A DNA stretch of 64,000 bases from positions 15,281-79,280 of the forward strand of contig JAFRVI010000004.1 of NCBI GenBank assembly GCA_017438525.1, in the 5' to 3' direction. This document shows, piece after piece, positions 23,755 to 45,490 of the stretch. The translations under genes were made by a program, and so were the position numbers. How positions within the stretch are numbered: the stretch's first letter is position 1; each line of letters begins with the position of its first letter. The notes under the pieces were generated by a model. The model worked only from the letters and a program-made list of their open reading frames with translations. It did no database searches and was not told the origin of the DNA. The stretch is from Clostridia bacterium (GTDB lineage Bacteria; Bacillota; Clostridia; Oscillospirales; RGIG8002).

Positions 23755-25302
23755 TTACGCAAGTTTAGCGGCAATGCGAAGAACGGCGAGAGCATCTGAA
23801 ACCGTGATCTCTCCGTCTTTGTCCATGTCGCAGATAGCGATAACATCATAGGTTGCGGGGGCGAGCTTAGCGGCAATGCGAAGAACGGCGAGAGCGTCGG
23901 AGACCGTGATCTCTCCGTCGTCGTCCATATCACCGGGGATCCTCGTGATCTTCGGAATGTCAACGGTGAAATCCGGAGCGAAACGCAGTACGAGCGGCAG
24001 TCCGTTTTCCGCCTTCTTTTCTATTTGTATCGCGTGAACACCTTCGGACAAGAGATCGCGCTGAACCGTGATCTTGCCTTCATCGTCGGTAACGTACTCG
24101 GTGCCTTCGAAGTAGACTGTCGCTCCCGCGACGGGGTTTACTGTCACGACGGGGGTATAGTCCAAGTCGTAAGACGTATCGGCGCTGGTGAATTTGATTA
24201 CGCGCTTATTTATTTCGGAAAGGTCAACTTCCGGATACTGCATGCCGACTCCGTAGGGATCGCCGTAGTAGAAAAGGACTGAGTCTCCGTCTGCGAGATT
24301 GACGCCGTTTATTCCGGTTGCGGCTTCGATTCCGTTGACGGTGAACAGCCAGCCGTCCCAGCCGCCGAAGGCGCCCGCGGCGTCGCCGTTTATGCTTGTA
24401 ATGTAAGGAGATGCCCCTTCGGCTCCGACTACGGTCAGGTTTTCATTCTGTTCATCTGCATAGATGATCATATCCTGAACAGTGAGACTTTCGGACGTGT
24501 ATGGAACCGTGACGTCGTCATAGAAAAGGTTTTCGTTTATGCCTTCGATGCGAAGCTTAACGGTCATCGTTTTGGGCTTCTCTGGTACGGTAACTTTATA
24601 GTCGGGAGCGAGGCGCAGGACGAGCGGAACGCCCTTGTCGCCCTTTTTATCGATCGAAAGAGAATGATCGCCGGCGGTAAGATACTGCTCCTCTATGGTG
24701 ATCTTTCCGTCTTTGTCGGTAATATAGGTCACGGGCGTTTCGCCGCCGAAGACGACCGTCATGTCGGCGCCGGGATTTTCGGTAACGGTGGGGTTATACT
24801 GTTCGTCGTATGTGGTGTCCATGCTCGTGAAGCGTATAACTCCGTTTGCGATATCTGAAACGTCGGGAACAGGGTACTGCATACCGACTCCGTAGGGGTC
24901 GCCGTAGTAGAAAACGACGCTGTCGCCTTCTTTCAGATTATAAGCGTTGACACCGACGGGCGGCTCCTCGCCGTTAACGGTGTAGAGCCATCCGGAATAC
25001 CCGCCCATCGAGCCGGCAACGTCGCCGTTTATGTCGGTGATATAGGGCGATGAACCGGTCGCGCCGACGACGGTTATAGCGTCGCTGTTATTGTCAGCGT
25101 AGATGATCAGGTCCTGTACGGTTAGGTTCGCCGATGAATACTGGATCGTCAGCGTGTCGTAATAGTAGTTCTGTGCGATTCCTTCGATACGAAGGGTAAC
25201 GGTCATCTGGTGCTGAGCCCCGGCGAATACCGCCATCGGCAGCGCAGCGGTCGCTATGGTAAGAACAAGCAGCAGCGCCAGGATCTTTTTGATGTTTCTC
25301 AT
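23755..25302 (-). CDS. Secreted tandem (DUF4430 + Ig-like)x2 protein with C-terminal type I dockerin; putative cobalamin-binding protein
   Basis: Signal peptide MRNIKKILALLLV (GGAGG RBS before ATG 25302); two 213-aa repeats each with YIT.ING...GWL.TVNG...G.....L..GDSV.FYY; two Ca-binding repeats GDMDDDGEITVSDALAVLRIAAKLA. Confidence 0.8.
   Translation of the reverse strand: MRNIKKILALLLVLTIATAALPMAVFAGAQHQMTVTLRIEGIAQNYYYDTLTIQYSSANLTVQDLIIYADNNSDAITVVGATGSSPYITDINGDVAGSMGGYSGWLYTVNGEEPPVGVNAYNLKEGDSVVFYYGDPYGVGMQYPVPDVSDIANGVIRFTSMDTTYDEQYNPTVTENPGADMTVVFGGETPVTYITDKDGKITIEEQYLTAGDHSLSIDKKGDKGVPLVLRLAPDYKVTVPEKPKTMTVKLRIEGINENLFYDDVTVPYTSESLTVQDMIIYADEQNENLTVVGAEGASPYITSINGDAAGAFGGWDGWLFTVNGIEAATGINGVNLADGDSVLFYYGDPYGVGMQYPEVDLSEINKRVIKFTSADTSYDLDYTPVVTVNPVAGATVYFEGTEYVTDDEGKITVQRDLLSEGVHAIQIEKKAENGLPLVLRFAPDFTVDIPKITRIPGDMDDDGEITVSDALAVLRIAAKLAPATYDVIAICDMDKDGEITVSDALAVLRIAAKLA
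23945..25206 (-). repeat. Internal tandem duplication, period 639 nt (213 aa)
   Basis: MTVTLRIEG at 25206 and MTVKLRIEG at 24567; shared FYYGDPYGVGMQYP and PLVLR.APD motifs. Confidence 0.9.
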
Positions 25303-25317
25303 TGTTTTTACCTCCAT

Positions 25318-25352
25318 AAAAAATACCTTTCCCGCTATTCAGGCAGAAAAGG
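25318..25352 (-). terminator. Attenuator hairpin in riboswitch expression platform
   Basis: CCTTTTCTGC-CTGAATA-GCGGGAAAGG followed by TATTTTTT just before the RBS. Confidence 0.6.
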
Positions 25353-25439
25353 CGCGTAACAAAACAAGGCCGATTGAATCGGCGTGCGTTCGCGCTTTTC
25401 GCTGCCCAAAAGCGTTCTCCGATCAAACGGAGCCGAACT

Positions 25440-25535
25440 CTCTTCCGGTAGGCGACCCGACTTGTGACGCTTTCGTCAGATACGGTAATGGCTGTTGCGT
25501 CGGATTCTCACCGCGCTTCTCCCGGGCCGGAAGAG
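25440..25535 (-). ncRNA. Cobalamin riboswitch, short (class II-like) form
   Basis: Minus strand: CTCTTCCGG...GGGAGAAGCGCGGTGAGAATCCGACGCAACAGCCATTACCGTA...AAGTCGGGTCGCCTA-CCGGAAGAG; 9-bp closing stem, GGTG-x-AATCC T-loop, B12-box-like 3' element; upstream of B12-type ECF genes. Confidence 0.85.
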
Positions 25536-25553
25536 TATTCAGTTTATGATTGC

Positions 25554-25562
25554 ATTATAGCA
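25554..25562 (-). promoter_or_regulatory. Extended -10 promoter for the cobalamin operon
   Basis: TGCTATAAT about 20 nt upstream of the aptamer; no well-spaced -35. Confidence 0.6.
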
Positions 25563-25610
25563 ATGCTAAATGTGTAAATATATGACAATTATACAACTTT
25601 ATATAAAAAT

Positions 25611-26435
25611 CTACTCATTTTGATAGGAGCGCCCGATGCGTTGTCCCATTACGACAGGGATCTCTTCTCCGGAATCGAGCTTGAACGCCTCGTCGACGGA
25701 AGCCCGTCCTTTTTCGATAAGGAGGATCACGGTACTGCCTCCGTAAAGGAATCGGCCTTTTTCTTCGCCGCGCGCGAACTTGTGGACGCCATGATAATTG
25801 TCTATCTTTCCGACAAGCATTGCGCCGACCTCTATCTGTACGGCGTCTCCGAAGTTGTCGGTGTGCATCAAAGTGTATTCGCGGCAGTTCTCGACAAACA
25901 CCGGCAGCGCTTCGAGCGCGGTAGGTCTGACGGTGTGGAGGAATCCCGGTATAAAGACGTTATCCTCTTTTTTGCCGCCGTCGAAATAACAGTAGCGGTG
26001 ATAGTTGTCAACACATAGCCGGAATATAAGGCACAGCCCGTCCTCAAACCTCTCGGCAAGCTTTTCGTCGCGGAGCAGAGAGGCGATCGTATATTTGCTT
26101 TGCTTGACCGGAAGTACGGTATCTCCGCTTATGCTGTACGCCGTCAGCAGTCCGTCGCAGGGGGAAATCAGCGCGGACGCTTCTGCGTCAATCGGACGGT
26201 ACCCTTCGCGTATCTGTCTGCAGAAACAGTCGTTGAAGCATTTGAAATCATCAGCGTAGTACTGCGACAGGTCTATGTTGTTCTTCTTGACGAACTTTTT
26301 TATTAAATGCTTGGAGAGACGTGAATCAAGATATTTTCCGCATAGACGCGAAAGCCATCTGCGTTTGATGATTTTCAAGCACAGACGGCCGAAGGCGTTA
26401 TTGTAAAGGAATATTACGGATTTGCTTTCGCTCAT
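25611..26435 (-). CDS. psd: Phosphatidylserine decarboxylase proenzyme
   Basis: FNDCFCRQ, ISPCDG, RLCVDNYHRY, EVGAMLVGKI, YGGSTV self-cleavage motif. Confidence 0.95.
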   Translation of the reverse strand: MSESKSVIFLYNNAFGRLCLKIIKRRWLSRLCGKYLDSRLSKHLIKKFVKKNNIDLSQYYADDFKCFNDCFCRQIREGYRPIDAEASALISPCDGLLTAYSISGDTVLPVKQSKYTIASLLRDEKLAERFEDGLCLIFRLCVDNYHRYCYFDGGKKEDNVFIPGFLHTVRPTALEALPVFVENCREYTLMHTDNFGDAVQIEVGAMLVGKIDNYHGVHKFARGEEKGRFLYGGSTVILLIEKGRASVDEAFKLDSGEEIPVVMGQRIGRSYQNE

Positions 26436-26449
26436 GACGGCTCACTTTC

Positions 26450-27196
26450 TTAATTGAAGATAAGCAGTATAGATATCGCGATAAACTCTATGGCGCCGAT
26501 GGCGACCATTATTAAGACCTGTTTCATCGTCGGCTTCTTGAAACTGAACTTTGCGAGAAAGAGATACCCTGTAATCAGCATGGTTACGAAATACAGGGGA
26601 GTCAGATCAACGCCGAGCGTGAGGTCGAAGATGTAGCGCAGAAGGAGAACGGTAGGGAAGATGAGCGCCGACGAAGTTACGGGAAGTCCGGTATAGGTCG
26701 TCGGTGAATCGGGCGCGGTCTGCATACGTTCGTCCTCTTTAACATTGAAATACGCGAGACGAATCAAGGCGGCAAGTGAGAATAGTACGAGCAGGGCCAT
26801 TATCAGTATCTTAAGCACTATGAAGTACCATTCCGTGTCGCCGAAAAGCTCTTTGAAAATTGCCGGCGGAACGACGGAGGAAGCCAGCGGGTATATCTTT
26901 GAGAAAAGCGGTGAGGTGTTCAGCGCAGCGTAGCCGATGCATGCGGGAAGCACGCCGAATGCAACGACATCGGAAAGGGAATCGATCTGGATCCCGAATT
27001 TGCGTCCGTTGTCGGTTCGGTCTTTTTTCGTTCTGGCGACCTTTCCGTCAAACGCGTCACAGAGACCGCAGAAGAGGAGAAAAAACGCGCCTATGTAGGG
27101 GTGTCCGTTCCCCGTAAGCGAAATGATCGAGCCGAGGGTAGCGGACGCCAAAGAAAGATACGTCAGTATAACCGTATAATCATATATTCCTATCAT
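26450..27196 (-). CDS. pssA: CDP-diacylglycerol--serine O-phosphatidyltransferase (CDP-alcohol phosphotransferase)
   Basis: DAFDGKVAR...FGIQIDSLSDVVAFG motif, RLAYFN, GLP; start ATG 27196; adjacent to psd. Confidence 0.88.
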   Translation of the reverse strand: MIGIYDYTVILTYLSLASATLGSIISLTGNGHPYIGAFFLLFCGLCDAFDGKVARTKKDRTDNGRKFGIQIDSLSDVVAFGVLPACIGYAALNTSPLFSKIYPLASSVVPPAIFKELFGDTEWYFIVLKILIMALLVLFSLAALIRLAYFNVKEDERMQTAPDSPTTYTGLPVTSSALIFPTVLLLRYIFDLTLGVDLTPLYFVTMLITGYLFLAKFSFKKPTMKQVLIMVAIGAIEFIAISILLIFN

Positions 27197-28271
27197 TGTT
27201 CTTTCTCCCCTTGAAGTAGATGTAAAGCATAAACATTCCGCATACAAATACACAGATGTAGAACGAAAGCGTGCGGCTCAAAAGCTCGAGCGTACCGGGC
27301 TGAACCGGTGACTTTACGATCAGACTGCTGAAGCCGTCTATCATAAGATAGTCGGTTACTCCTATTGAGCCGGGTATCGGAACGAAAGTGGAACCTAACA
27401 GTACATAGATCTGCATTACGAAGATGTTGAATATTTCGGCTCCGCGCCCGCCGAGCGCAATAAACGTGAACATCGTTACCGAAATGACGGATGCGCGCTG
27501 AAGAATGTTTATACCAAGCACTTTCGCCATCATTGAGCGTTTGCCGTGGAGGTATTCGGCGTATTTGTCATATTCCGCCATTTTGTCGCTGAATGTGTTT
27601 TGCAGCTTGTCTTCGTCCCGTATGATGCGGAGTTTCGCGGTAAAGTGTATCAGGCGCCTGCCGATGCTGTGGAGAAGTTTCTTGTTTTTTATAAGTATCA
27701 GCACGAGCAGCGCGAGGGTGAACTGTATAACGGTTCCTACTATTATCATAACGCGCGATACGACGCTGAACTTGAGGAACAGCGACGGCCTCGCGATAAA
27801 CGCGAAAATGCCGAGTACGGCGATCGAAAGTGTATACATCAGCAGATTGACGAGAAGCGCAATCGCCGCGAATACACCCGGGATGCCGTCCTTGATCATT
27901 ACATACGCCTGGGCGGGCTGACCGCCGGTCGCCGAAGGAGTAATCGAAGAAAAGTAGAATCCGGTCGAGGAATAGAGCAGACCGCTTTTCAGGCGTCTTC
28001 CGTATCCGAATGAACGGCAGATATACATCAGCGAAAGCGCTTCGAACAGGATGTATCCGAATGTGCCGCAGATCGCGGCGATGATCCACGGAGGAGAAGC
28101 GGTGCTGACGCTCTTGAAGAATTCGCTGAAGTGGAAGTTGCGGTTGAAAGACGTCACCGCCACGACGCTGAGAACTGCGATAACTATAAAGAGGATAGAC
28201 CACAGAACGCGATGAGAGCCGTGCTTTTGTTTGACGTCGTTCTCGCTTTCGTTTATCGGGCTATTGCTCAA
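27180..28271 (-). CDS. Lysylphosphatidylglycerol-synthase TM region / flippase-like membrane protein (UPF0104)
   Basis: FSSITPSATGGQP, VPIPGSIGVTD, RTLSFY motifs; about 8 TM; probable TTG start at 28271 after GAAAGGA. Confidence 0.85.
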   Translation of the reverse strand: MSNSPINESENDVKQKHGSHRVLWSILFIVIAVLSVVAVTSFNRNFHFSEFFKSVSTASPPWIIAAICGTFGYILFEALSLMYICRSFGYGRRLKSGLLYSSTGFYFSSITPSATGGQPAQAYVMIKDGIPGVFAAIALLVNLLMYTLSIAVLGIFAFIARPSLFLKFSVVSRVMIIVGTVIQFTLALLVLILIKNKKLLHSIGRRLIHFTAKLRIIRDEDKLQNTFSDKMAEYDKYAEYLHGKRSMMAKVLGINILQRASVISVTMFTFIALGGRGAEIFNIFVMQIYVLLGSTFVPIPGSIGVTDYLMIDGFSSLIVKSPVQPGTLELLSRTLSFYICVFVCGMFMLYIYFKGRKNNDRNI

Positions 28272-28989
28272 GTGACATTTCCTTTCGGGCGTCTGTTGCA
28301 AGGCGCTTTTTGTTAATGGATGCGAAGACTCGGTCGGCGCGTGTCAAACGACAGATGAGTAGGCCTATCTCCGCGACCAGCACTCCGGCCGGTATGTCTA
28401 TCAACACGTGCTGGTGAATCAATACAGTAGAGGCAAACACGAGCATTGTGAATACGAACGAAAACGGCGCATACCACTTTCTGATGTCTTTAAGATGAAT
28501 CGATCCGCGGAAGCATATCCAGCTCTCGAGGCAATGAATCGAGGGGAACAGGTTGATCATGGGAGTATCGATGAAATACATCCAGCTGACCAAGGTGTAA
28601 AACGGACCGGTTTGTGTGATTTCCGGCCGAGTCATCATCGTCGGATAGAAAATAAATACCATCAAGGCGATGAACTTCGCGATAATCTCGCCGGTCATGA
28701 AGCGATAGCAGAGAGATTCGCTCTCTCTCGCTATAAGAGTGAATCCGACAAACCATTGCACGTAAGAAAGCACGTAAATGATTATGAATACGGGAACGAG
28801 CGGGACGTCAACGCCGAGAAATATTGAATTAACGTTTGCCGTTGTGTCTTCCGCAAGCATATGCGGAGGACCGATCACACCGAGCACGATAAGCAGCTTC
28901 GGCAGGTAATAGGCAAGCATATTGAAACCCAGTACGGTCCAGAGCGGAACGACCGCATATCTGGGGAATATCTTCCTTAACAGCTTCAT
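28261..28989 (-). CDS. PAP2-superfamily membrane protein (AUR1/inositol-phosphoceramide-synthase-like)
   Basis: IFYPT..RP, NLFPSIH, STVLIHQHVLID catalytic His/Asp motifs. Confidence 0.85.
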   Translation of the reverse strand: MKLLRKIFPRYAVVPLWTVLGFNMLAYYLPKLLIVLGVIGPPHMLAEDTTANVNSIFLGVDVPLVPVFIIIYVLSYVQWFVGFTLIARESESLCYRFMTGEIIAKFIALMVFIFYPTMMTRPEITQTGPFYTLVSWMYFIDTPMINLFPSIHCLESWICFRGSIHLKDIRKWYAPFSFVFTMLVFASTVLIHQHVLIDIPAGVLVAEIGLLICRLTRADRVFASINKKRLATDARKEMSLEQ

Positions 28990-29049
28990 TTGCTCCTCCG
29001 GTTAAACAGACGCTGTAATCCAGTTAAATTTCGCCATATAATCATAGAC

Positions 29050-29078
29050 AGTATAACAAATTATTAAAATAATATCAA
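29050..29078 (-). promoter_or_regulatory. sigma-A promoter of the lipid operon
   Basis: TTGATA-17nt-TATACT. Confidence 0.65.
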
Positions 29079-29139
29079 GATAATTTTAACAAAGTTTTTG
29101 AAAATTATACTGCAGCGGTTTTTCGCCAAAGTCTTCGGA

Positions 29140-30417
29140 TCATATGCAGTTGTTGTCGACGCAGTTTTCTATGAATTCGGAAAACAGAGCTTCCGGCCAG
29201 GTGAACCATTCGCGCGTGTAGTTGCAAGGATTGTCAACGTCAAATCCTTCGTGAAGATGACATTTTCCGGCTTCGGTTGAAGCGATTGTTTTGAGTAGTT
29301 CGCGCCTTTCGTTGTCATCCGTCGAGGTCAATCCCTGCATTATAAGCGACATATGCCAGACATAATTCCGAGGAGTGTGCGGCGAACCTATGCCGCGGGC
29401 ATACTTTCCGGAGTAATAATAAGGGTTATCCGCGCTTAACAGGAAACGACGGGTGTTGAGATATATCTCGTCGTCCGCGGCGGAATATCCTATATACGGT
29501 ATAGACAGCAAGCTGGGAACGTTCGCGTCGTCAATCATTGAGTAATGACCCATGCCATCCGTTTCGCAGGCGTAGATTCTGCCGTATTTCCCGTGCTCAA
29601 CGATGCAGTAGTTCCGTATCCCGTCGTCTATCTCTTTGCGGAGAGCGTCGCATTCGGCTGCGAGCGATTCGTTATTGCAAACGCTGCTGAGCATTTCCGC
29701 GGCGTAACCGAGAACGACTACCGCGAACATTTCTGAAGCGGTGAGGTAACCGTAAACGCAGCCGTCGTCGCTCGGTCTGAACGCGGAGCGCGTCATGCCT
29801 GTATACGCGGCGGGCGCGCCTCTGCCGCCGTAGGGATAGTCGTCGATTGTAATCCCGTTTTCCAAGCGTATGAAGTAATACGGCGAATTCTCTTCGTGAC
29901 GCTGTTCGATTCTCCATTGATTGAGAATAATGCGCATGACGGATTCGAGTTCATTTCTTATTATTTCCGTTTTACCGGTCTGTTTATAATATAAATACAG
30001 CAGACGCAGGGGATAACACAGGGAGTCGACCTCATACTTGCGTTCAAATACCCACGGATTGTTTTTCGGCAGATCCTCCGGATGCCCTTCGCCGTTCGGT
30101 TCCTGATTGAACGCGTTGGCATACGGATCTATCCTTATATACATGAATTGACGTTTAAGCACGCCTTCAATTATTTCAGAAATCTCCGGATCGTTTGCAA
30201 GCGGTATATAATGAGATACCTGCGCTGATGAATCGCGCAGCCACATTGCCGGTATATCGCCGGTTAGCACGAAATATGTTCCGTCGTCGCATTTTCGGAC
30301 GGCTGTCTCAAGCGTGCTGGCGCAGCAGTTTCTGTACAAATCACGCAGTTTGGGATGCCTTTCGAGTTTTTCTGAATAACGATCGATTCTTTTGATAAGG
30401 GAGTCGGGGAGCTGCAT
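29140..30417 (-). CDS. Glycoside hydrolase family 125 (exo-alpha-1,6-mannosidase-like)
   Basis: TGDIPAMWLRDSSAQ, DPYANAF, ERKYEVDSLCYP, DDANVPSLL, GSPHTP, WHMSLIMQGLT, REWFTW; start ATG 30417 after GAGGTG. Confidence 0.95.
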   Translation of the reverse strand: MQLPDSLIKRIDRYSEKLERHPKLRDLYRNCCASTLETAVRKCDDGTYFVLTGDIPAMWLRDSSAQVSHYIPLANDPEISEIIEGVLKRQFMYIRIDPYANAFNQEPNGEGHPEDLPKNNPWVFERKYEVDSLCYPLRLLYLYYKQTGKTEIIRNELESVMRIILNQWRIEQRHEENSPYYFIRLENGITIDDYPYGGRGAPAAYTGMTRSAFRPSDDGCVYGYLTASEMFAVVVLGYAAEMLSSVCNNESLAAECDALRKEIDDGIRNYCIVEHGKYGRIYACETDGMGHYSMIDDANVPSLLSIPYIGYSAADDEIYLNTRRFLLSADNPYYYSGKYARGIGSPHTPRNYVWHMSLIMQGLTSTDDNERRELLKTIASTEAGKCHLHEGFDVDNPCNYTREWFTWPEALFSEFIENCVDNNCI

Positions 30418-30443
30418 AGTATACACCTCGTTTCTACGTGTCG

Positions 30444-30472
30444 ATTATATCATATATCTATTTGTCGTTCAA
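30444..30472 (-). promoter_or_regulatory. sigma-A promoter for GH125
   Basis: TTGAAC-17nt-TATAAT, extended -10. Confidence 0.7.
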
Positions 30473-30483
30473 TGATATAAAAT

Positions 30484-30523
30484 AAAAAATCGGGTATCCG
30501 CGGCAGTTGCGCGGACACCCGAT
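30484..30523 (-). terminator. Terminator after tRNA-Pro
   Basis: ATCGGGTGTCCGC...GCGGATACCCGAT followed by TTTTT on minus strand. Confidence 0.85.
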
Positions 30524-30599
30524 GGTCCGAGTGACTGGAATCGAACCAGCGGCCCCTTGAACCCCATTCAAGTACTCTACCAAGCTGAGCTACACCCGG
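30523..30599 (-). tRNA. tRNA-Pro(GGG)
   Basis: CCGGGTGTAGCTCAGCTTGGTAGAGTA-CTTGA-ATGGGGT-TCAAG-GGGCCGCTGGTTCGATTCCAGTCACTCGGACCA, 77 nt. Confidence 0.97.
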
Positions 30600-30616
30600 A
30601 TCGGTCAACGGCTAAT

Positions 30617-30645
30617 AGTCTACCACAGCTTTGCCCAAAATGCAA
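30617..30645 (-). promoter_or_regulatory. sigma-A promoter for tRNA-Pro
   Basis: TTGCAT-17nt-TAGACT, extended -10. Confidence 0.6.
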
Positions 30646-30770
30646 GAGTAATTTTCAAAAATCCCTTTAATAATTTTTCCGCCTTTTGTTTCAAGCTGCC
30701 TATTTATCATGTTGTTTCAGATAATTCGTAAATTTTCAACATATTTTTTTCATATTTTCTTTAAAATTGC

Positions 30771-30799
30771 TTGACAAAAGATTCTAATAAGTATATTAT
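30771..30799 (+). promoter_or_regulatory. Strong sigma-A promoter for zinc-ribbon gene
   Basis: TTGACA-17nt-TATTAT with AT-rich UP region. Confidence 0.8.
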
Positions 30800-30910
30800 A
30801 TAAAAGCTTGGAAACAGGCAGAATACTGCCCAGAAGGGGATTGAACCCCTCAATTACTTCCGGTTCAGGTCCGATTTTGAGCAAAAACCATTATTTTTTG
30901 GAGGAAAAAC

Positions 30911-31180
30911 ATGTACGAAGACAAGACCTTGGTATGCAAAGATTGCGGAGCCGAATTCGTGTTCACCGCCGGTGAGCAGGAGTTCTACGCGGAGAGGGGC
31001 TTCCAGAATGAGCCCTCCAGATGCAAGGAATGCAGAGCTAATCGCAAGCGCGCCAGCAGAGAGATGTTTGAGACGACCTGCTCTCAGTGCGGCGGTGTTG
31101 CCAGAGTTCCTTTCCAGCCCCGTGATGACAGACCGGTTCTGTGCAGCGAGTGCTTCGCTAAGAGCAGAGAGCAGCAGTAA
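30911..31180 (+). CDS. Small zinc-ribbon protein (zf-trcl + CxxC-x17-CxxC domain)
   Basis: LVCKDCGAEFVFTAGEQEFYAERGFQNEPSRCKECR and CSQCG...VPFQPRDDRPVLCSECF; GGAGG RBS. Confidence 0.92.
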   Translation: MYEDKTLVCKDCGAEFVFTAGEQEFYAERGFQNEPSRCKECRANRKRASREMFETTCSQCGGVARVPFQPRDDRPVLCSECFAKSREQQ

Positions 31181-37793: not shown

Positions 37794-37803
37794 AGATTTC
37801 ACC

Positions 37804-38670
37804 TCAAATTATCGTCACGCCGGTTTTTGAAGGCGTGGTTATATATGACAGTATCGGCTTGTGGAGGCGTTTTTTACACTTTTCCGCGATGATGCGCGAA
37901 TCGAAAACGCCGAAGACGGAAGTTCCGCTGCCGGACATGCAGGACGCTTTCGCGCCGTTTTCGAGGAGCTTTTCGGCGATATGCCTGACTGTGCCGACGC
38001 AGCTTTCGGTTATCGGCTGCAGTTTGTTCGCCATATGCAGGCACAGAGTGTCGAGATCGCCTTCGTTCAGCGCGTTGACGGCGGCCGTGTTGTTCACTTC
38101 GGGAAGCGATCCGCCGTATTCGTCATATAGCGCGAATGCTTTGGGAGTAGACATTCCGCGCAAGGGCTTTGCGATAAGAATATAGCAGTCGGGCATATCG
38201 GGAAGCTTCGTTATTATTTCGCCGACGCCTTCGCAGAGCGCCGTTCCGCCCGTAAGGCAGAACGGAACGTCCGCGCCGAGTTTCAAACCAAGCTCTTTCA
38301 GCTCGTCAAGCGAGAGTCCGCAATCAAAGAATTTATTCAGACCGACGAGCACCGCCGCGGCGTCCGCGCTTCCTCCGGCAAGTCCGGCGGAAACCGGTAT
38401 CCGCTTTTTGAGGTCGATATGCACGTTGTGCGGCAGCGACATGGTATCAAGAAACAACCTCGCGGTCTTGAACACGAGGTTGTTTTCGTTTACGGGTATG
38501 CGCGTGCTTCCGGATGAAAAGAGGATGCCTTCTGAAATGCTGTCGATAGTTATTACGTCGGCGAGCGCGACCGACTGCATTATCATCGAAAGAGAGTGGT
38601 ATCCGTTATCCGTGAAGCCCGTCACGTCGAGCGTAAGGTTTATTTTTGCGTGTGCCTTGAGAGTTATCAT
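37804..38670 (-). CDS. ispE: 4-diphosphocytidyl-2-C-methyl-D-erythritol kinase
   Basis: AHAKINLTLDV, KRIPVSAGLAGGSADAAA, GADVPF, MSGSGTSVFG. Confidence 0.96.
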   Translation of the reverse strand: MITLKAHAKINLTLDVTGFTDNGYHSLSMIMQSVALADVITIDSISEGILFSSGSTRIPVNENNLVFKTARLFLDTMSLPHNVHIDLKKRIPVSAGLAGGSADAAAVLVGLNKFFDCGLSLDELKELGLKLGADVPFCLTGGTALCEGVGEIITKLPDMPDCYILIAKPLRGMSTPKAFALYDEYGGSLPEVNNTAAVNALNEGDLDTLCLHMANKLQPITESCVGTVRHIAEKLLENGAKASCMSGSGTSVFGVFDSRIIAEKCKKRLHKPILSYITTPSKTGVTII

Positions 38671-39839
38671 TTCTTCAGTTCGGCAATGAACGTGCCGATC
38701 CTTTCGAGAGCTTCAACAAGGTGGTTGACGGAGTAGGAGTAGGAAATGCGTACGAATCCTTCGCCGGATGCGCCGAAGGCGTTTCCCGGTACGACCGCGA
38801 CCTTCTTTGAATGGAGCAGGCGGGTGCAGAATTCTTCGCTCGTGAGTCCGAGTTTTGAGACATTCGGGAAAACGTAGAACGCTCCGAGCGGCTCGAAGCA
38901 GGGGAGCCCGAGCTTGCGGAGTCCGTCGACGACGAGCTTGCGGCGCATATCGTAGCTTTCGCGCATATTCGCGATGTCTTCATCGCCGTCGCGCAGCGCC
39001 TCTATCGCGGCGTACTGCGCAGACGTTGGCGCGCACATGATGCAGAACTGATGTATCTTCAGCATCTGCTTTAATATCGGAGCGGGAGCGCAGGCGTATC
39101 CGAGGCGCCAGCCGGTCATCGCGTACGCCTTCGAGAATCCGCTGACGAGGACGGTGCGCTCGCGCATACCGTCTATCGAGGCGATGGAAACGTGGCCTTC
39201 GCCGGTATAGGTAAGCTCGCCGTAAATCTCGTCGGAGAGAATCATTATATCCGTTCCGCGCAGGAAACCCGCGAGAGCTTCGAGGTCGCTTTTGCGCATT
39301 ACCGCGCCGGTCGGATTGTTCGGGAAGGGGAGTACCAGCAGTTTTGTTTTAGGCGTAATAAGCGGCTTAATGTCGTCGACGGTCAGCCGGAATTCGTTTT
39401 CCTCACGCGTGGGAACGGGAACGGGAACGCCGCCCGCGAGGGACGTTATCGGCGAATAACAGACGAAGGACGGCTCCGGAATGAGAACTTCGTCGCCCGG
39501 AGAAACCAGCGCGCGTATCGCTATATCTATCGCCTCGCTGCCGCCTACGGTAACGACGACTTCGGACTTTGGATCGTAATTCAGCCCGAAGCGCCGCGAA
39601 AGGTAGCGGCTTATCTCATCGCGAAGCGGAGCAAGACCGCGGTTGGCGGTGTAGAAGGTCTTGCCCGTTTCAAGCGAATATATGCCCGCTTCGCGAATGT
39701 GCCACGGGGTCATGAAGTCGGGTTCTCCGACGCCGAGCGTTATAACGTCGTCCATTTCGGCGGCGATGTCGAAGAACCTTCTTATGCCCGACGGTTTGAT
39801 CGCGCATACTGCGGGGTTGAGAATCTTATCGTAATCCAT
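38667..39839 (-). CDS. PLP-dependent aminotransferase class I/II (YugH/AlaT-like)
   Basis: PSGIRRFFD, LGVGEPDF, PNNPTG, SDEIY, SGFSKAYAMTGWRLG. Confidence 0.93.
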   Translation of the reverse strand: MDYDKILNPAVCAIKPSGIRRFFDIAAEMDDVITLGVGEPDFMTPWHIREAGIYSLETGKTFYTANRGLAPLRDEISRYLSRRFGLNYDPKSEVVVTVGGSEAIDIAIRALVSPGDEVLIPEPSFVCYSPITSLAGGVPVPVPTREENEFRLTVDDIKPLITPKTKLLVLPFPNNPTGAVMRKSDLEALAGFLRGTDIMILSDEIYGELTYTGEGHVSIASIDGMRERTVLVSGFSKAYAMTGWRLGYACAPAPILKQMLKIHQFCIMCAPTSAQYAAIEALRDGDEDIANMRESYDMRRKLVVDGLRKLGLPCFEPLGAFYVFPNVSKLGLTSEEFCTRLLHSKKVAVVPGNAFGASGEGFVRISYSYSVNHLVEALERIGTFIAELKK

Positions 39840-40318
39840 CAGAACAGGCCTTCCTCACGGACCGGCGGCTCGTTTTCAACGAAAACAACGCCGTCATCCT
39901 TGTATTTCTTGAGCATAAAGTGCGTCGCGCAGGAGAGTATCTGTTCGAGAGGAGCGAGGCGGGAGGAAACGAAGGTCGCGACGTCCTTCAGCGTCTTTCC
40001 CTCGACGACCGCGAGGAAATCGTAGGCGCCGGAAACGAGATACAAGCTCTTCACCTCGGGGAATTGGAAGATGCGTTCGGCGACTGCCTCGAAGCCGTGT
40101 CCGCGCTGCGGAGTGACCTTGATCTCTATAAGTGCGGTGGTGGTGTCCTTTTCGGTTTTGTCCCAGTTGACTACGGCGGAGTAGCAAACGATGGTCTTGT
40201 TCTTTTCGAGCTCCGCAACGGTTTTCGCGACCTCTTCAACGCTCATTCCGAGCATACTGGCGAGCTGTTCGTTCGTAAGTTTTGCATTGTTTTTGAGAAG
40301 TTCAAGCAGCTTTAACAT
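39839..40318 (-). CDS. Lrp/AsnC family transcriptional regulator (YugG/AlaR-like)
   Basis: N-terminal HTH; KVTPQRGHGF..AERI..FPEVKSLYLVSGAYD; coupled to aminotransferase. Confidence 0.92.
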   Translation of the reverse strand: MLKLLELLKNNAKLTNEQLASMLGMSVEEVAKTVAELEKNKTIVCYSAVVNWDKTEKDTTTALIEIKVTPQRGHGFEAVAERIFQFPEVKSLYLVSGAYDFLAVVEGKTLKDVATFVSSRLAPLEQILSCATHFMLKKYKDDGVVFVENEPPVREEGLF

Positions 40319-40341
40319 GTGTTTTTCCTCCGTTTCGTTAA

Positions 40342-41199
40342 TCAGAATTCGACAAGCTTTGGCTTGCGGTCATTATAGACGGTGTAATGGGTGAATCCTG
40401 CCGCCTTCGCGATATCGACGGCAACGTTGAAATCCGCGGCGACGACGTCGGCAGTGTGTGCGTCGGAGCCGATCGTGATCATTTCGCCGCCGAAAGATTT
40501 ATAGAGCCGAACGAGGTCAGGCCAGGGATCAGTGACGCGATAGTCGTGATTGCGAACTCCGCCGGTGTTGATTTCCAGCGCTCTGCCTGAATCGACTACG
40601 AGGCGGAAGATGCGGCTTATTTCTTTGTCGAAAAGGGAAAGGTCTTTTATCCCGAGGAAACCTTTGTACCGCATGGGATAGGTCAGATGCGCGAGCACGT
40701 CGAAATCGCAGGTCTCGCACATTTCGATAATCTCCTCAAAATACATCTTCAGCATGCCTTCGGGATCGGGAAGGGCTTCCATAAAATAGAAGTCGACGTT
40801 TCCGCGGATATTGTGCATCGACCCGAGCAGGCAGTCGAACTTGTAGTTGTCGAGCAGATAACGCTCATCGTCGTGATTCTGCGTGGCTTCGCCGACCTCG
40901 GCGCCTCTCTTTACCTTCAACACCGGTTCGAATTCAAGCGCCGCCCGCGCTATTGAAGCGTAGGACGCGGCGAGGACGTCGCGGCACTCTTTATATCCGC
41001 AGTCATAGTGGTCTGTAATACAGATCTCGGCAAGCCCGGCTTTGACTGCGGCGGAACAGACGTTGAATATATTCTCTTTAGAATCCGGCGACGCTTCGGT
41101 ATGAGTATGATAGTCTGCGAGTTTCTTGATTTCATCAGTCGCAAAGGGGGACGGAAGCGGGGCGGGATGTGTTCTTTCGATAGTTGCGAGCGTACTCAT
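40342..41199 (-). CDS. PHP-family histidinol-phosphatase (HisJ/HisK-like)
   Basis: DYHTHT..SPD, CITDH, GSMH, LAHL.YP, LEINT, GSDAH. Confidence 0.88.
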   Translation of the reverse strand: MSTLATIERTHPAPLPSPFATDEIKKLADYHTHTEASPDSKENIFNVCSAAVKAGLAEICITDHYDCGYKECRDVLAASYASIARAALEFEPVLKVKRGAEVGEATQNHDDERYLLDNYKFDCLLGSMHNIRGNVDFYFMEALPDPEGMLKMYFEEIIEMCETCDFDVLAHLTYPMRYKGFLGIKDLSLFDKEISRIFRLVVDSGRALEINTGGVRNHDYRVTDPWPDLVRLYKSFGGEMITIGSDAHTADVVAADFNVAVDIAKAAGFTHYTVYNDRKPKLVEF

Positions 41200-41227
41200 A
41201 AAAACCTCTAAAAACTTGATTTTATTA

Positions 41228-41256
41228 TTGAAAAGTGCATTTCGTCGTGATATAAT
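41228..41256 (+). promoter_or_regulatory. sigma-A promoter for SGNH-dockerin cluster
   Basis: TTGAAA-17nt-TATAAT, extended -10. Confidence 0.7.
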
Positions 41257-41303
41257 GAGATGATAGAGTAGGCGTAAGCGTCTTTCTTTGAGTTGTTAAG
41301 TAT

Positions 41304-41332
41304 ATTATAAGCGTCGAATCCTCATTTTGCAA
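41304..41332 (-). promoter_or_regulatory. sigma-A promoter for PHP-Lrp-aminotransferase-ispE operon
   Basis: TTGCAA-17nt-TATAAT on minus strand. Confidence 0.7.
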
Positions 41333-41352
41333 TACTAAAAGGAGATTTTGGA

Positions 41353-42744
41353 ATGAAAAGATTCTTTTCCGTCATAATTGCCCTTTCGATAGCGGCGTCG
41401 CTTTTTATAATCTCGCCGGTAACCGCGAAAGCATTATATAAAGTAAAAATCGCCTGCATAGGCGACAGCATTACTGACGGCGGCTTTATACCGGGATACG
41501 GCTATCCCGACGGACAGGGCCTCGATGACCCCCGCTGCTATCCGAAGCAGCTTGAAGCTCTGCTCGGCGAGAACTACGAGGTAAAGAACTTCGGAGACAG
41601 CGGCAGAACGCTGATGAGCACCGCGGATTATCCTTATATTTCCGCTCCCGGCGAGCTCTATCGTGAAAGTCTTGAATATGACGCTGATATAGTTCTGATA
41701 ATGCTCGGTACCAACGACGCGAAGGTTACGAACGATCCGAGCACCACGAACTGGAAAGAGGATAGTCCGCAGCAGTTCAAGACCGATCTGGAGGCGCTTA
41801 TCGAGGTTTATCGCAATCTGCCGAGTCATCCGACGGTTTATGTGCTGACTTCGCCGACCGCGTTCAACAACGGCGCTTATAACATCGTTCCCGCCAATGT
41901 CGACACGATAGCGGAACTGCAGCGCGAGGTCGCCGCGGATCTCAACGCTCCGCTTATCGATATGCACACGCTCACGGCTGATATGGGAACTTATTTCAGT
42001 GATAACATCCACCCGAATCAGGCGGGCTACGCCCGTTTGGCGCAGCTTGTATATAATGAGCTTGTGCCGACTTTCACAGCGCCTTCCGCGCCTGTTGACG
42101 TCAGAGTCGTGAGCAACGGCAGCGGCAGGTCGATCGTTTCCTGGACGACCGGCAATAAGGGCGGACTGCCTACGCTTAATTTCAAGGTCTACATAGACGG
42201 CGAATTCATCGCGGACTTCGAACGCATGACTTACACCGCGAAAAACCTCACCAACGGCAGCGTATATGATTTCAACGTGACCGCCGTCAATTCGCTCGGC
42301 GAATCCGTTTTTTCGGAAACCGTGCAGCTTCAACCGACCGCGGCGGACCCGAAAGTCACAGGCGTTGCCGACGGAGTCGTTTACGACCTCGCGGACGGAG
42401 CGCCGAAGGCGAGCTGGAAAACGGCTACTTCAGCCACTCTCGACGGTAACGAATACGTGAAAGACACGGAAATAACAACTTTAGGCGAACATACTCTTGT
42501 CGTTACAAATGATAACGTCGTCGTTTCCGTAACCTTCACGGTTATTGATTCATCCTTTATGCCCGGAGATATGGACGGCGACGGCGAGATCACCGTCGCG
42601 GACGCGCTCGCGGTACTGCGCATTGCCGCGAAACTTGCTGATGAGACACCCGACGCTCTGCGTATTGGAGATATGGACGGCGACGGCGAGATCACCGTCG
42701 CGGACGCTCTCGCGGTACTGCGCATCGCCGCGAAACTTGCGTGA
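41353..42744 (+). CDS. Secreted SGNH/GDSL esterase 1 (sialate O-acetylesterase-like) + Fn3 + Ig-like + dockerin
   Basis: Signal peptide; SGNH blocks GDSIT, NFGDSG, GTND, DNIHP; Fn3 (SWT..GLP..FKVY...Y.F.V.AVN..GES); double GDMDGDGEITVADALAVLRIAAKLA. Confidence 0.88.
   Translation: MKRFFSVIIALSIAASLFIISPVTAKALYKVKIACIGDSITDGGFIPGYGYPDGQGLDDPRCYPKQLEALLGENYEVKNFGDSGRTLMSTADYPYISAPGELYRESLEYDADIVLIMLGTNDAKVTNDPSTTNWKEDSPQQFKTDLEALIEVYRNLPSHPTVYVLTSPTAFNNGAYNIVPANVDTIAELQREVAADLNAPLIDMHTLTADMGTYFSDNIHPNQAGYARLAQLVYNELVPTFTAPSAPVDVRVVSNGSGRSIVSWTTGNKGGLPTLNFKVYIDGEFIADFERMTYTAKNLTNGSVYDFNVTAVNSLGESVFSETVQLQPTAADPKVTGVADGVVYDLADGAPKASWKTATSATLDGNEYVKDTEITTLGEHTLVVTNDNVVVSVTFTVIDSSFMPGDMDGDGEITVADALAVLRIAAKLADETPDALRIGDMDGDGEITVADALAVLRIAAKLA
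42565..42741 (+). repeat. Near-identical coding repeats (dockerin halves, 102-nt period); further copies at 43956, 45314, 45416 and 23758-23934 (minus)
   Basis: GATATGGACGGCGACGGCGAGATCACCGTCGCGGACGC (38 nt) identical at 42568, 42670 and 43956. Confidence 0.9.
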
Positions 42745-42788
42745 TAAATCTTTTCATTTTATATTCACAACCGAAAGGGGGGCAGCGT

Positions 42789-44132
42789 GTGAAAAGATTG
42801 GTTTCGCTTATTACAGCGTTATCGCTCATGATGTCGCTTCTCATTATCCTTCCGACAGAGGTTAAAGCCGTTTACAAGGCGAAAATCGCATGCGTAGGCG
42901 ACAGCATTACATACGGATACGGTCTCGACGATCCGCGAAGCTTCCCGTCGCAGCTCGGCGTGCTTCTTCAGGAAAACTACGAAGTCAGGAACTTCGGCGC
43001 GGGCGGCAAGACGCTTATGAGCACCGGAGATACCCCTTATACGCAATATATCGAGTATCAGCCGAGTCTTGAATATGAAGGCGATATCGTTCTGATAATG
43101 CTCGGCACGAACGACGCCAAGTATTATAACTGGCATCCCGATTCTTCTCCGGCCGTTCTGAAGCGCGAACTGAAACAACTTGTTCAGACATACCGCGATC
43201 TGCCGAGCAAACCCACGGTGTTCATTATGACGTCCCCGACGCTTTTCGAGGGATGCCACCACGACTTCATACCATCTAACGTCGATACGATCGCGCAGCT
43301 TCAGCGTGAAGTTGCAGAGGAGATCAACGCTCCGCTTATAGACCTGCACACGTTCACCGCGGATATGGAGCAGTATTTCGAGGATAAAATCCACCCGAAT
43401 GCCGATGGATACGCCTTGATCGCCGATTACATCGACGATATTATCGTCGCTAACGAGGGAACGCTTCCCGGAGCTCCGAAAGACCCTTACGTTTTAAGAA
43501 ACTCCAGCGGAAGGTCTATCGTTATGTGGAGCACCGGACCGAAGGGCGGACTGCCGCTTCTCTCGTTCAACGTCTACATTAACGGCGAATTCTACGGAAA
43601 CAGCCGCAGCACAACGTTTACCGTAACTAAGCTTACGAACGGCGTTACTTATGAAATGACGGTTACTTCGCTTAACGCAAACGGCGAATCAGAGCGGTCC
43701 GAGGTCGTAATACTCGAACCGACGGCGGACGATCCGAAGGTTACCGGCGTTGAAGACGGCGGCGTTTACGATCTCTCCGAGGTCGCACCGCCGAAGGCAA
43801 GCTGGAAAAAAGCAACGTCCGCAACCCTCGACGGCGCTGAATACGCTAAAGATACCGAAATAACCGCCCCGGGCGAGCACGTCCTCGTCATCACTAACGA
43901 AAACGTAACCGTTACTGTCACCTTTACGGTTATCGCTCGCGAAACCGCCGCAGGTGATATGGACGGCGACGGCGAGATCACCGTCGCGGACGCTCTCGCG
44001 GTACTCCGCATCGCGGCGAAACTTGCCGACGAAACACCCGACGCTCTCCGCGTCGGAGATATGGACGCCGACGGCGCGATTACGGTTTCCGACGCTTTGA
44101 GAGTTCTTCGTATCGCCGCTAAGCTCGCGTAA
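42789..44132 (+). CDS. Secreted SGNH/GDSL esterase 2 + Fn3 + Ig-like + dockerin
   Basis: GTG start 42789 after GAAAGGGG; GDSITYG, NFGAGG, GTNDA, DKIHP; same C-terminal modules. Confidence 0.88.
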   Translation: MKRLVSLITALSLMMSLLIILPTEVKAVYKAKIACVGDSITYGYGLDDPRSFPSQLGVLLQENYEVRNFGAGGKTLMSTGDTPYTQYIEYQPSLEYEGDIVLIMLGTNDAKYYNWHPDSSPAVLKRELKQLVQTYRDLPSKPTVFIMTSPTLFEGCHHDFIPSNVDTIAQLQREVAEEINAPLIDLHTFTADMEQYFEDKIHPNADGYALIADYIDDIIVANEGTLPGAPKDPYVLRNSSGRSIVMWSTGPKGGLPLLSFNVYINGEFYGNSRSTTFTVTKLTNGVTYEMTVTSLNANGESERSEVVILEPTADDPKVTGVEDGGVYDLSEVAPPKASWKKATSATLDGAEYAKDTEITAPGEHVLVITNENVTVTVTFTVIARETAAGDMDGDGEITVADALAVLRIAAKLADETPDALRVGDMDADGAITVSDALRVLRIAAKLA

Positions 44133-44146
44133 GAAAGGGTAAGGAT

Positions 44147-45490
44147 ATGAAAAAAGCGCTGTCATTACTGGTTTTGCTTTCGATAGTCATTTCCGTTTGC
44201 GCGTTTGCGCCGTTCGTTGCCGAAGCGGCGCAGGTGATCAAAGTAGCTTGCATCGGCGACAGCATAACGTACGGCTACGGGCTTACGAGCTCGATGAGTT
44301 ATCCGACAAAGCTCGAGGGATATTTGGGCTCCAACTATGAGGTGACGAATTTCGGCGAGGGAAGCGCTACCATGCTTTCTGACGGCAAGAAGCCGTATAT
44401 CAGTCTTGATATTTATCAGCAGAGTCTGCAGTACGATTGCGACATAGTCGTTATCATGCTCGGCACGAACGACGGCAAGGAGTTTAACTGGGAAGGCAGT
44501 AATCCGAGAATAAACAAGTTCAAAAGCGAGCTTTCCGATCTGATTGATACCTACCGCGCGCTTCCTACTCATCCGACCGTTTACGTAATGACATCCCCCA
44601 CGGTTTTCGAAAACGGGAGTTACGGCATCGTTCCCGCAAGAGTAACCGAAATATCCGGACTTCAAAAGGAAGTAGCCGCGGAAAAGGACTGTCCGGTTAT
44701 CGATATGCACACTCTGACCGCAGATCAGAAGGATAAATTCCGCGACGACTACGTGCATCCCGAGGAATCCGGATACGACTTCATCGCGCAAAAAGTCGCG
44801 GAGCATATTCAGGCCTATCCCGGACGCGTCCCGGGTATCCCGCACAGTCTCGAAGTAAGGGATGCATCGAAAAGCGCTATTATTTCCTGGAAAATGACTG
44901 ACAAAGGCGATCTTCCGATGATTTCATACAATGTGTATGTCAATGGGGAGCTTTCAACGACGAGTTCGGGATTGACCGCGCGAGTCGGGAAACTTGTCAA
45001 CGGTCGGGAATACGAGATCCGCATTTCCGCGGTGAATGCCGTCGGAGAATCGGCGCTTTCCGAACCTGTCCTCGCGCATCCTACCGCCGCCGATCCTAAG
45101 GTTACCGGCGTAGAAGACGGAGCCGTTTATGATCTCGCGGACGGTGCGCCGGCGGCGAGTTGGAAGACTGCGACATCAGCTACGCTCGACGGCGAAGAAT
45201 ATGTCAAAGGTACGGAGATAACCGCCGAGGGAGAACATCTGCTTGTAGTAACTAATGATAATGTTGTCGTTACGATAGCGTTCACAGTGGTTAATTCGGC
45301 ATTTATACAGGGCGATATGGACGGAGACGGCGAAGTAACGGTCGCGGACGCTCTTGCGGTTCTTCGCATCGCCGCGAAGCTTGTTCCGGAAACGTCCGAA
45401 GCAATACGCATCGGCGATATGGACGGAGACGGCGAAATCACCGTTTCCGACGCTTTGCGGGTCCTTCGTATAGCCGCAAAACTCGCATAA
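44147..45490 (+). CDS. Secreted SGNH/GDSL esterase 3 + Fn3 + Ig-like + dockerin
   Basis: GDSITYG, NFGEGS, GTNDG, DYVHP; same C-terminal modules. Confidence 0.88.
   Translation: MKKALSLLVLLSIVISVCAFAPFVAEAAQVIKVACIGDSITYGYGLTSSMSYPTKLEGYLGSNYEVTNFGEGSATMLSDGKKPYISLDIYQQSLQYDCDIVVIMLGTNDGKEFNWEGSNPRINKFKSELSDLIDTYRALPTHPTVYVMTSPTVFENGSYGIVPARVTEISGLQKEVAAEKDCPVIDMHTLTADQKDKFRDDYVHPEESGYDFIAQKVAEHIQAYPGRVPGIPHSLEVRDASKSAIISWKMTDKGDLPMISYNVYVNGELSTTSSGLTARVGKLVNGREYEIRISAVNAVGESALSEPVLAHPTAADPKVTGVEDGAVYDLADGAPAASWKTATSATLDGEEYVKGTEITAEGEHLLVVTNDNVVVTIAFTVVNSAFIQGDMDGDGEVTVADALAVLRIAAKLVPETSEAIRIGDMDGDGEITVSDALRVLRIAAKLA

Follow-up and report, generated by a model that had tools for sequence, protein, structure and literature searches.

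What does a dockerin do on a protein that is predicted to bind vitamin B12? The question is raised by a stretch of 64,000 nucleotides (to be referred to as the window) from an uncultured rumen Clostridia bacterium (RGIG8002; assembly GCA_017438525.1, contig JAFRVI010000004.1, positions 15,281-79,280 of the forward strand). Four genes at two sites in the window encode secreted proteins with the same kind of dockerin. The cargo is a predicted B12 binder in one case (g20) and an esterase in the other three (Est1, Est2 and Est3). A sequence-only reading of the window proposed that a common cohesin-bearing scaffoldin, encoded elsewhere in the genome, assembles these functionally unrelated proteins, which is plausible. 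The evidence presented here points to surface display as the role of this dockerin, mainly from a comparison with the homologs of g20.

One dockerin on four secreted proteins

Eight calcium-binding halves, each a loop followed by a helix, are spread over the four proteins, two per protein. They are located at positions 23758-23934 (minus strand) in g20, and at 42565-42741, 43953-44129 and 45311-45487 (all plus strand) in Est1, Est2 and Est3, respectively. The scores with the Pfam model Dockerin_1 (PF00404) are 26.0, 29.8, 28.4 and 32.7 bits in this order, and all four proteins exceed its gathering score of 22.9. A pattern for the DNA of one half has eight matches in the window, as compared to 0.00 expected from 100 shuffles. 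A relaxed scan of all six frames for EF-hand or dockerin loops finds the same eight halves and none further. Together with the translations, these results agree with the number, the genes and the positions given in the sequence-only reading. The N-terminus of each of the four proteins has, by inspection, the basic n-region, hydrophobic core and AxA-like site of a signal peptide.

The consensus of the half is D-M-D-x-D-G-x-I-T-V-[AS]-D-A-L-x-V-L-R-I-A-A-K-L, which is present twice in each dockerin. The calcium ligands D1, D3, D5 and D12 are invariant in the eight halves. Residues 10 (Val), 17/18 (Leu-Arg) and 22 (Lys) are identical in all of them, and residue 11 is either Ala or Ser, so the near-invariance noted earlier for positions 10/11, 17/18 and 22 is found again. 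The two earlier-noted exceptions to the consensus are also present, a Cys in place of Gly at the start of the second half in g20 and a Val in place of Ile in the first half in Est3. The symmetry of the two halves predicts that this dockerin could bind a cohesin in two modes.

The likeness of the halves is found mostly in the protein. When the halves are compared with each other, there are on average 9.7 synonymous and 2.6 non-synonymous differences in 25 codons (roughly 4:1), and most pairs share 54-64 of their 75 nucleotides. The predominance of synonymous differences indicates that the likeness has been kept by selection and not by recent copying, and it rules out recent gene conversion or duplication as the source of the identity. 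Judged from the codons, the halves are under purifying selection. Among the three esterase paralogs, the dockerins are 85-92% identical, as compared to 49-62% for the SGNH domains and 56-62% for the Fn3+X region. One type of dockerin that stays constant on diverging cargo is what would be expected from a common binding partner. With its fixed recognition positions and its codon differences, the module fits the earlier description of a single dockerin subtype on unrelated cargo.

Searches of the Protein Data Bank (PDB) by sequence, with the whole proteins and with a dockerin profile, are dominated by the EF-hands of calmodulin and give no close solved dockerin. A homolog search with the dockerin alone as the query returns only fragments at contig ends.

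A dockerin in the position of a surface anchor

The strongest evidence on the role of the dockerin comes from the 120 closest homologs of the g20 cargo, collected with a query from which the dockerin was removed. A C-terminal dockerin is found in 15 of these proteins, all at least 68% identical, which are the tandem-unit proteins of the clade of the window. In comparison, 78 homologs end in a PxTG-type sorting signal with a hydrophobic segment and a basic tail. These are mostly single-unit proteins of about 300 residues, mostly from Clostridia, Acutalibacteraceae, Ruminococcaceae and Herbinix, and one of them carries the name 'LPXTG-motif cell wall-anchored protein' in its source. A C-terminal transmembrane (TM) segment is found in another 24, which brings the homologs with a sortase signal or a TM anchor to 102 of the 120. 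The rest consist of one protein with an SLH domain and two with a truncated or other C-terminus.

The dockerin has therefore replaced the sortase or TM anchor in the clade of the window. As it is located where the relatives bear their cell-surface anchor, it can be read as a tether to a receptor on the surface, and comparison of the sequences suggests that it most likely holds the tagged proteins there.

The predicted B12 binder and its operon

The gene for g20 is located at positions 23755-25302 (minus strand). The protein contains a signal peptide, two units that each consist of a DUF4430 domain (PF14478) and an immunoglobulin (Ig)-like domain, and the C-terminal dockerin. The DUF4430 score is 87.8 bits, over two stretches. 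The open reading frame (ORF) extends to position 25317 (520 residues), but the start is most likely at 25302 (MRNIKK, 515 residues), as in a database copy of 515 residues.

The first DUF4430 unit was modeled with AlphaFold2 from an alignment of 72 sequences, with a pLDDT of 96.2. A Foldseek search of the PDB with this model places the beta-domains of haptocorrin, transcobalamin and intrinsic factor, together with the entry 3u7z, in all of the top 18 ranks, and other structures are found only from rank 19. The isolated beta-domain of human transcobalamin, with and without cyanocobalamin, is among the matches (TM-score 0.68-0.70). The label 'vitamin binder' of the sequence-only reading is well supported by this fold and by the position of the gene, in a transporter operon of the energy-coupling factor (ECF) type behind a riboswitch-like leader. 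Based on the model, g20 is likely a B12 (corrinoid) binder.

A five-gene operon on the minus strand begins with g20, which is followed by g19, EcfT, EcfA-A′ and EcfS, and this order is the same in three related loci (L013, L014 and L015). The second protein, g19 (21943-23724), has a signal peptide, an α/α-toroid, a long Ser/Asp-rich linker, two TM helices (at about residues 401-456) and a C-terminal DUF4430 domain (62.1 bits). With a profile of its N-terminal domain, the PDB search finds terpene-cyclase toroids (E=3e-8). There is no sequence match between this domain and the alpha-domains of transcobalamin, and the AlphaFold2 model from the single sequence has a pLDDT of 36. The two TM helices suggest that the toroid and the DUF4430 domain both face outward. 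The layout of g19 is unusual, and resembles a transcobalamin-like alpha+beta binder that is split by a two-helix membrane hairpin.

The ECF set is complete: besides the T and S components there are two ATPase domains, and all of the Pfam scores are over the cutoffs. EcfT (21068-21946) belongs to the CbiQ family (PF02361, 33.7 bits; cutoff 25). EcfA-A′ (19470-21161) is a fused double ATPase with two PF00005 domains, and its translation probably begins a few codons further downstream than 21161. It scores 289.1 bits with TIGR04521 and 309.7 bits with TIGR04520, the latter just under the cutoff of 315. The S component (18799-19473; PF07155, 45.6 bits, cutoff 26.7) is the last gene, and its orthologs have 224 residues and the same place in L013-L015. 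Naive calling of the longest ORF hides this gene under a spurious ORF of 161 residues in another frame (18794-19279).

An aptamer that resembles the adenosylcobalamin riboswitch is located in the 5′ leader of the operon (25414-25549, minus strand). It aligns to the full length of the Rfam model RF01482 with 25.2 bits (E=0.012 in a search of 361 nucleotides), and an Rfam scan of the whole window gives no cobalamin riboswitch at the gathering threshold. The core of the aptamer in this 290-nucleotide leader is nearly invariant in five orthologous loci, the proteins of which are 68-85% identical. A terminator hairpin with an 11-bp stem and a run of T is located directly upstream of the g20 start (25325-25353, minus strand). 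The pairing of its stem is kept by compensatory changes in the orthologs (alignment columns 206-208 and 220-222), and the hairpin is probably the expression platform of a riboswitch. The leader as a whole (25325-25549, minus strand) may, judging by its conservation, be a divergent variant of the cobalamin riboswitch that the Rfam gathering score misses. The fold of DUF4430, the ECF genes, the riboswitch-like leader and the conserved operon, taken together, make corrinoid uptake the best reading of the locus.

In some relatives, an insertion is found between the ECF operon and polC (L015, 16687-20982; L013, 16706-19139), which the window does not have. Encoded in the insertion are a sigma factor of the ECF type and a membrane protein that is anti-sigma-like, along with a Peptidase_S8 protein that has a different dockerin subtype and small propeptide-like proteins with the dockerin subtype of the window. 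Its layout recalls the sigma/anti-sigma control of cellulosome genes. The anti-sigma-like and propeptide-like proteins were considered as cryptic cohesins, and they have no match with the cohesin hidden Markov model (HMM).

The three esterases

Est1 (41353-42744, plus strand) consists of a signal peptide, an SGNH/GDSL domain, an Fn3 domain, a small beta domain of about 70 residues and the dockerin (Lipase_GDSL_2, 92.2 bits; fn3, 28.3 bits). The same architecture is found in Est2 (42789-44132) and Est3 (44147-45490), which follow on the same strand. The longest ORF of Est2 begins at a GTG codon that overlaps the stop codon of Est1; the most likely start is the GTG at 42789, which is located 16 codons later and corresponds to a database form of 447 residues (P0039). 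A protein identical to Est3 is encoded on contigs from ruminant-gut metagenomes. The SGNH domains score 87-100 bits with PF13472, and the catalytic blocks I (GDS), II (G), III (GTND) and V (DxxH) are readable in all three proteins, as the earlier assignment of three esterases would have it.

With the NCBIfam model of the acetylxylan esterase AxeA1 (NF042968), the three proteins score 130-145 bits (133.7 for Est1), over model positions 270-459. The equivalog cutoff of 700 is not reached, and the kinship to AxeA1 is in the catalytic domain only. The SGNH domain alone gives weak matches to generic lipases in the PDB, with no clue to the substrate. The sequences suggest that Est1-3 probably remove acetyl groups from glycans such as xylan.

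A promoter-like site with an extended TG is located upstream of the array (41228-41256, plus strand; TTGAAA-17-TATAAT, 11 of 12 positions), and no strong terminator was found between the three genes. In one related locus (L011, 8320-9623), a frameshift splits the third esterase into a catalytic part of 355 residues and a dockerin ORF of 96 residues. Assemblies often break within this array, and four of the related contigs (L001-L004) begin inside it.

A model of surface display

The explanation that we favor, and to which we give a little better than an even chance, is that the corrinoid binder and the esterases are displayed together on the cell surface through their shared dockerin, by one kind of cohesin encoded elsewhere in the genome. 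In this model, the dockerin would be a non-covalent, calcium-dependent plug that holds the four secreted proteins on the surface. The partner would be a single kind of cohesin on an anchoring protein. The riboswitch-like leader and the terminator would control the corrinoid operon. With its two transcobalamin-beta-like domains, the dockerin-tethered g20 would be the outermost part of the uptake system and catch the corrinoid away from the membrane. The membrane-anchored g19 would have its toroid and DUF4430 domain facing outward, and the ECF transporter (T, A-A′ and S) would import the corrinoid. Est1-3 would be a co-transcribed array that has diverged, with the Fn3 and small beta domains as spacers.

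Relatives of the window

The window has a GC content of 52%. It contains the sporulation gene SpoIIE, and SpoIVA and SipL are located just beyond its 3′ side. Proteins identical or nearly identical to those of the window are found in ruminant gastrointestinal metagenomes. The strict DNA pattern of the dockerin matches only two of 185,579 species-representative genomes, a collection that does not include the genome of the window. Both are metagenome-assembled genomes (MAGs) from the rumen of water buffalo. Synteny with the window covers the esterase locus in one of them (RGIG8119) and the DUF4430 locus in the other (RGIG8183). Orthologous loci are also present in the NCBI MAG GCA_017620395.1 and on several metagenome contigs, and a relaxed form of the pattern matches three metagenome contigs. 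The three-esterase array, the DUF4430 operon and their dockerins are all kept across this clade.

The window has a single glycoside hydrolase (GH) gene, which encodes an apparently cytoplasmic exo-α-1,6-mannosidase of family GH125 without a dockerin (29140-30426, minus strand). It adjoins a cluster for phospholipid synthesis (PAP2, an LPG-synthase-like protein, a CDP-alcohol phosphatidyltransferase and a phosphatidylserine decarboxylase), which is syntenic in all of the relatives.

The dockerin subtype and its cargo in other organisms

A profile of the four dockerins was compared with 1.84 billion cluster representatives, and it finds 8,035 proteins at E ≤1e-3 and 515 at E ≤1e-10. The strict half, ITV[AS]DALx[AV]LR[IV]AAKL, is present at least once in 59 of the best 150 proteins. 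The Pfam domains in these 59 carriers include BspA-type leucine-rich repeats (LRR, 10), Big_3 (6), Cohesin (5), Cleaved_Adhesin (4) and Big_2 (4). The content of the type found in carbohydrate-active enzymes (CAZymes) consists of two CBM_4_9 domains and one GH16 domain. Going by the domains of these 59 carriers, most of the cargo of the subtype overall is not of the CAZyme type.

This census bears on the first alternative, an ordinary cellulosome or hemicellulosome for plant cell walls, in which acetylxylan esterases and GHs would sit on a classical scaffoldin and the B12 binder would share the scaffold. The rumen habitat suits it, as do the fit of the SGNH domains to the catalytic part of AxeA1 and the CBM_4_9 and GH16 domains among the carriers. 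Moreover, carbohydrate esterase modules are found in 20 dockerin proteins of Ruminococcus flavefaciens (PMC2930009). As carbohydrate esterases are routine cargo of that cellulosome (PMC2930009), the three esterases provide no argument for the term 'non-cellulosomal' used in the sequence-only reading, and this part of it is doubtful. On the other hand, the carriers of the subtype have mainly LRR, Big_3, Cleaved_Adhesin and Big_2 domains, with just one GH and two carbohydrate-binding modules (CBMs). Within the clade, dockerins are seen on the B12 binder and the esterases, and also on small propeptide-like proteins and an S8 peptidase. Cellulases, CBMs and scaffoldins are all absent from the clade sequence covered, which exceeds 150 kb. 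The combination that defines a strict cellulosome, a dockerin-bearing cellulase or GH with a CBM-containing scaffoldin, was not found in the available sequence, and the window itself contains no CBM and no cellulase. We consider a plant-cell-wall cellulosome unlikely for these reasons.

The search for the cohesin

Pfam searches with essentially all ORFs, and a custom cohesin HMM applied to all six translated frames, find no cohesin in the window, which bears out the earlier statement that it has neither a cellulase nor a cohesin. The same is true of the 10 kb past its 3′ end and of the clade loci covered by the cohesin searches (L001-L008, L010, L011, L013-L015 and L017, about 100 kb in total). 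A homolog search from the alignment of the cohesin modules returns two fragments only.

Cohesins do occur together with this dockerin subtype in other proteins, which lends indirect support to the proposed scaffoldin. With the custom HMM, cohesin-like modules are found in about 10-12 of the best 150 proteins of the census. Typically, these proteins begin with a signal peptide and one or two cohesins, continue with Ig or Cys-rich repeats, and end in the dockerin. The contigs that encode them have GC contents of 43%, 56% and 58%, and their tetranucleotide correlation to the window is 0.36-0.88, as compared to 0.95 or higher for contigs of the clade that are at least 8 kb long. These differences in composition place the cohesin+dockerin proteins in other organisms, and rule out the three cohesin contigs L012, L016 and L018 as parts of the genome of the window.

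Two side observations were made on these proteins. In the scaffoldin-like proteins P0050, P0115, P0131, P0150 and P0068 (L012, L016), an N-terminal cohesin is followed by long arrays of a Cys-rich repeat of about 35 residues and then by the dockerin; the repeat has a motif like ATCTEPGEETRxCxxCG and no proper Pfam family. L018 (773-11092) is from a different Clostridia organism of higher GC, in a sample that also yielded a window-like contig, and is an instructive analog. It encodes four tandem GDSL esterases with N-terminal dockerins, and directly after them a Peptidase_M23-Cohesin-Dockerin protein and a two-cohesin protein that carries the dockerin subtype of the window.

A second alternative is that the dockerins are orphans in a genome without cohesin, and that they serve as a calcium-dependent stabilizing or wall/polymer-binding module or bind a partner other than a cohesin, in which case that other interaction would account for the constraint on the sequence. 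The failure to detect a cohesin in the window, in the 10 kb downstream and in the clade loci is in its favor, as is the lack of a close solved relative of the subtype. There is also precedent, as dockerin-like modules are reportedly present in many genomes without detectable cohesins. However, the very strong purifying selection falls exactly at the canonical cohesin-contact positions, in both halves. Proteins of other rumen bacteria that combine the subtype with a true Pfam cohesin were found repeatedly, and a dockerin in the position of a cell-wall anchor needs a specific receptor. Orphan dockerins are quite unlikely in this light.

A bolder version of surface display is that a cohesin-dockerin system has been repurposed as a general, exchangeable surface rack for nutrient scavenging, which would have taken the place of sortase anchoring for a Gram-positive 'corrinophore'. 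Docking might even take place across species, as the dockerin code is shared with cohesin-bearing proteins of other rumen species. The tandem-domain protein would then pass B12 to the alpha+beta binder in the membrane, and from there to the ECF importer. We hold this version to be speculative and improbable. A third alternative, which we hold to be very improbable, is that the subtype is a code of the rumen community, by which proteins attach to the cohesins of other organisms or to shared scaffolds. In its favor, near-identical recognition helices (44-50 of 59 residues identical) are found in proteins on contigs of 43%, 46%, 56% and 58% GC, which include cohesin carriers, one of them sampled together with a window-like contig. 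Against it, a protein that captures B12 for the ECF importer of its own cell is useful only on the surface of the producer, and common ancestry or horizontal transfer of the module is a simpler account.

Several observations weigh against the display of a corrinoid binder and esterases through one kind of cohesin. The cohesin was found neither in the window nor in the sequence around it or from its clade, and the known cohesin+dockerin proteins of the subtype differ from it in composition, as described above. The score of the leader with RF01482 is well under the Rfam gathering score of 50. Despite the B12 context of the operon, the S component scores best with the riboflavin-type (RibU) model, so that import of a corrinoid is a prediction. 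Finally, no characterized bacterial DUF4430 protein was found in the searchable literature.

Significance

Competition for B12 shapes the communities of the gut and the rumen. Capture of B12 at the cell surface is understood in Bacteroides (BtuG), and hardly in Gram-positive anaerobes. The locus described here points to a widespread family of proteins with DUF4430 and Ig-like domains, usually anchored by sortase, whose likely role is to bind corrinoids outside the cell for import by ECF transporters. One lineage of this family has exchanged the covalent wall anchor for a dockerin, which is a natural experiment on the role of dockerins outside the cellulosome. g20 is thus a concrete dockerin cargo with a ligand that can be assayed. 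A B12 binder as the cargo of a dockerin was not found described in the searchable literature, which gave no report that links DUF4430 proteins or cobalamin binders with dockerins. The locus adds to the evidence that the cohesin-dockerin systems of the rumen are general devices for surface display and not purely for fiber degradation. If the esterases are indeed xylan deacetylases on the same rack, the scavenging of carbohydrates and of a cofactor would be coupled.

Comparison with known systems

The fold of the DUF4430 unit is shared with the beta-domains of transcobalamin, intrinsic factor and haptocorrin and with the Ruminococcus gnavus protein 3u7z (Foldseek probability 1.00, TM-score about 0.7). 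The sequence identity is 10-22%, and cobalamin-bound entries are among the fold matches. Unlike transcobalamin, g20 lacks an alpha-domain in its chain, and its beta-domains come in tandem, with an Ig-like domain after each.

Surface capture and import of B12 are carried out by BtuG/BtuB in Bacteroides and by ECF-CbrT in Lactobacillus, where BtuG is a beta-propeller lipoprotein of a Gram-negative cell. The logic of these systems, an exposed high-affinity corrinoid binder, a dedicated importer and control by a B12 riboswitch, would be shared by the operon of the window. However, g20 is unrelated to BtuG, and the S component is RibU-like in score. We know of no description of dockerin tethering for either BtuG/BtuB or ECF-CbrT.

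The esterases share with Prevotella ruminicola AxeA1 only the SGNH domain, which aligns to the C-terminal 190 model positions. They lack the N-terminal 270 positions, and have the Fn3 domain, the beta domain and the dockerin in addition.

The type I dockerin of Clostridium (Acetivibrio) thermocellum (Xyn10B/XynY; 1ohz, 2ccl) likewise consists of a duplicated calcium loop and helix of 22-24 residues. The entries 1ohz and 2ccl are the best dockerin matches of the window dockerin in the PDB, and these matches are weak (E=0.018-0.2). At the recognition positions, the dockerin of the window has V-[AS]/L-R/K and that of C. thermocellum has S-T/K-R. The dual-binding mode of type I dockerins has been attributed to their symmetric halves (PMC5429695).

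In R. flavefaciens, roughly 50% of the about 220 dockerins belong to CAZymes, and the sca genes form a defined cluster (PMC2930009). The symmetric dockerins of its group 4 bind the cell-wall-attached ScaE, and a role in structuring the cell surface, as opposed to digesting fiber, has been suggested for them (PMC2930009). Like the organism of the window, R. flavefaciens is one of the rumen Clostridia and has symmetric halves, and its dockerins are found on esterases, peptidases, LRR proteins and many proteins of unknown function. The dockerin of the window is of a different subtype, and the clade has no cellulases in the available sequence.

The amylosome of Ruminococcus bromii, a gut Firmicute that is not cellulolytic, is functionally the closest system, with secreted proteins that bear C-terminal dockerins and are mostly not GHs. 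Only 4 of its 26 dockerin proteins are amylases, and the others include 10 membrane proteins of unknown function, 4 peptidases and 1 'putative terpene cyclase' (PMC4611034). The α/α-toroid of g19 is in the same fold class as the latter. A few cohesin proteins, some of them anchored to the cell surface, hold the dockerin proteins of R. bromii (PMC4611034). Its cohesins are known and their binding has been measured, whereas the system of the window is known from the dockerin side only. The cargo is different as well, a DUF4430 protein and SGNH esterases in the window and no amylases. Mostly non-CAZyme dockerin cargo on surface cohesins therefore has precedent, both in R. bromii (PMC4611034) and in R. 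flavefaciens (PMC2930009), and the system of the window belongs to this known class of cohesin-dockerin surface display, with a likely corrinoid binder as a cargo that the searchable literature does not describe.

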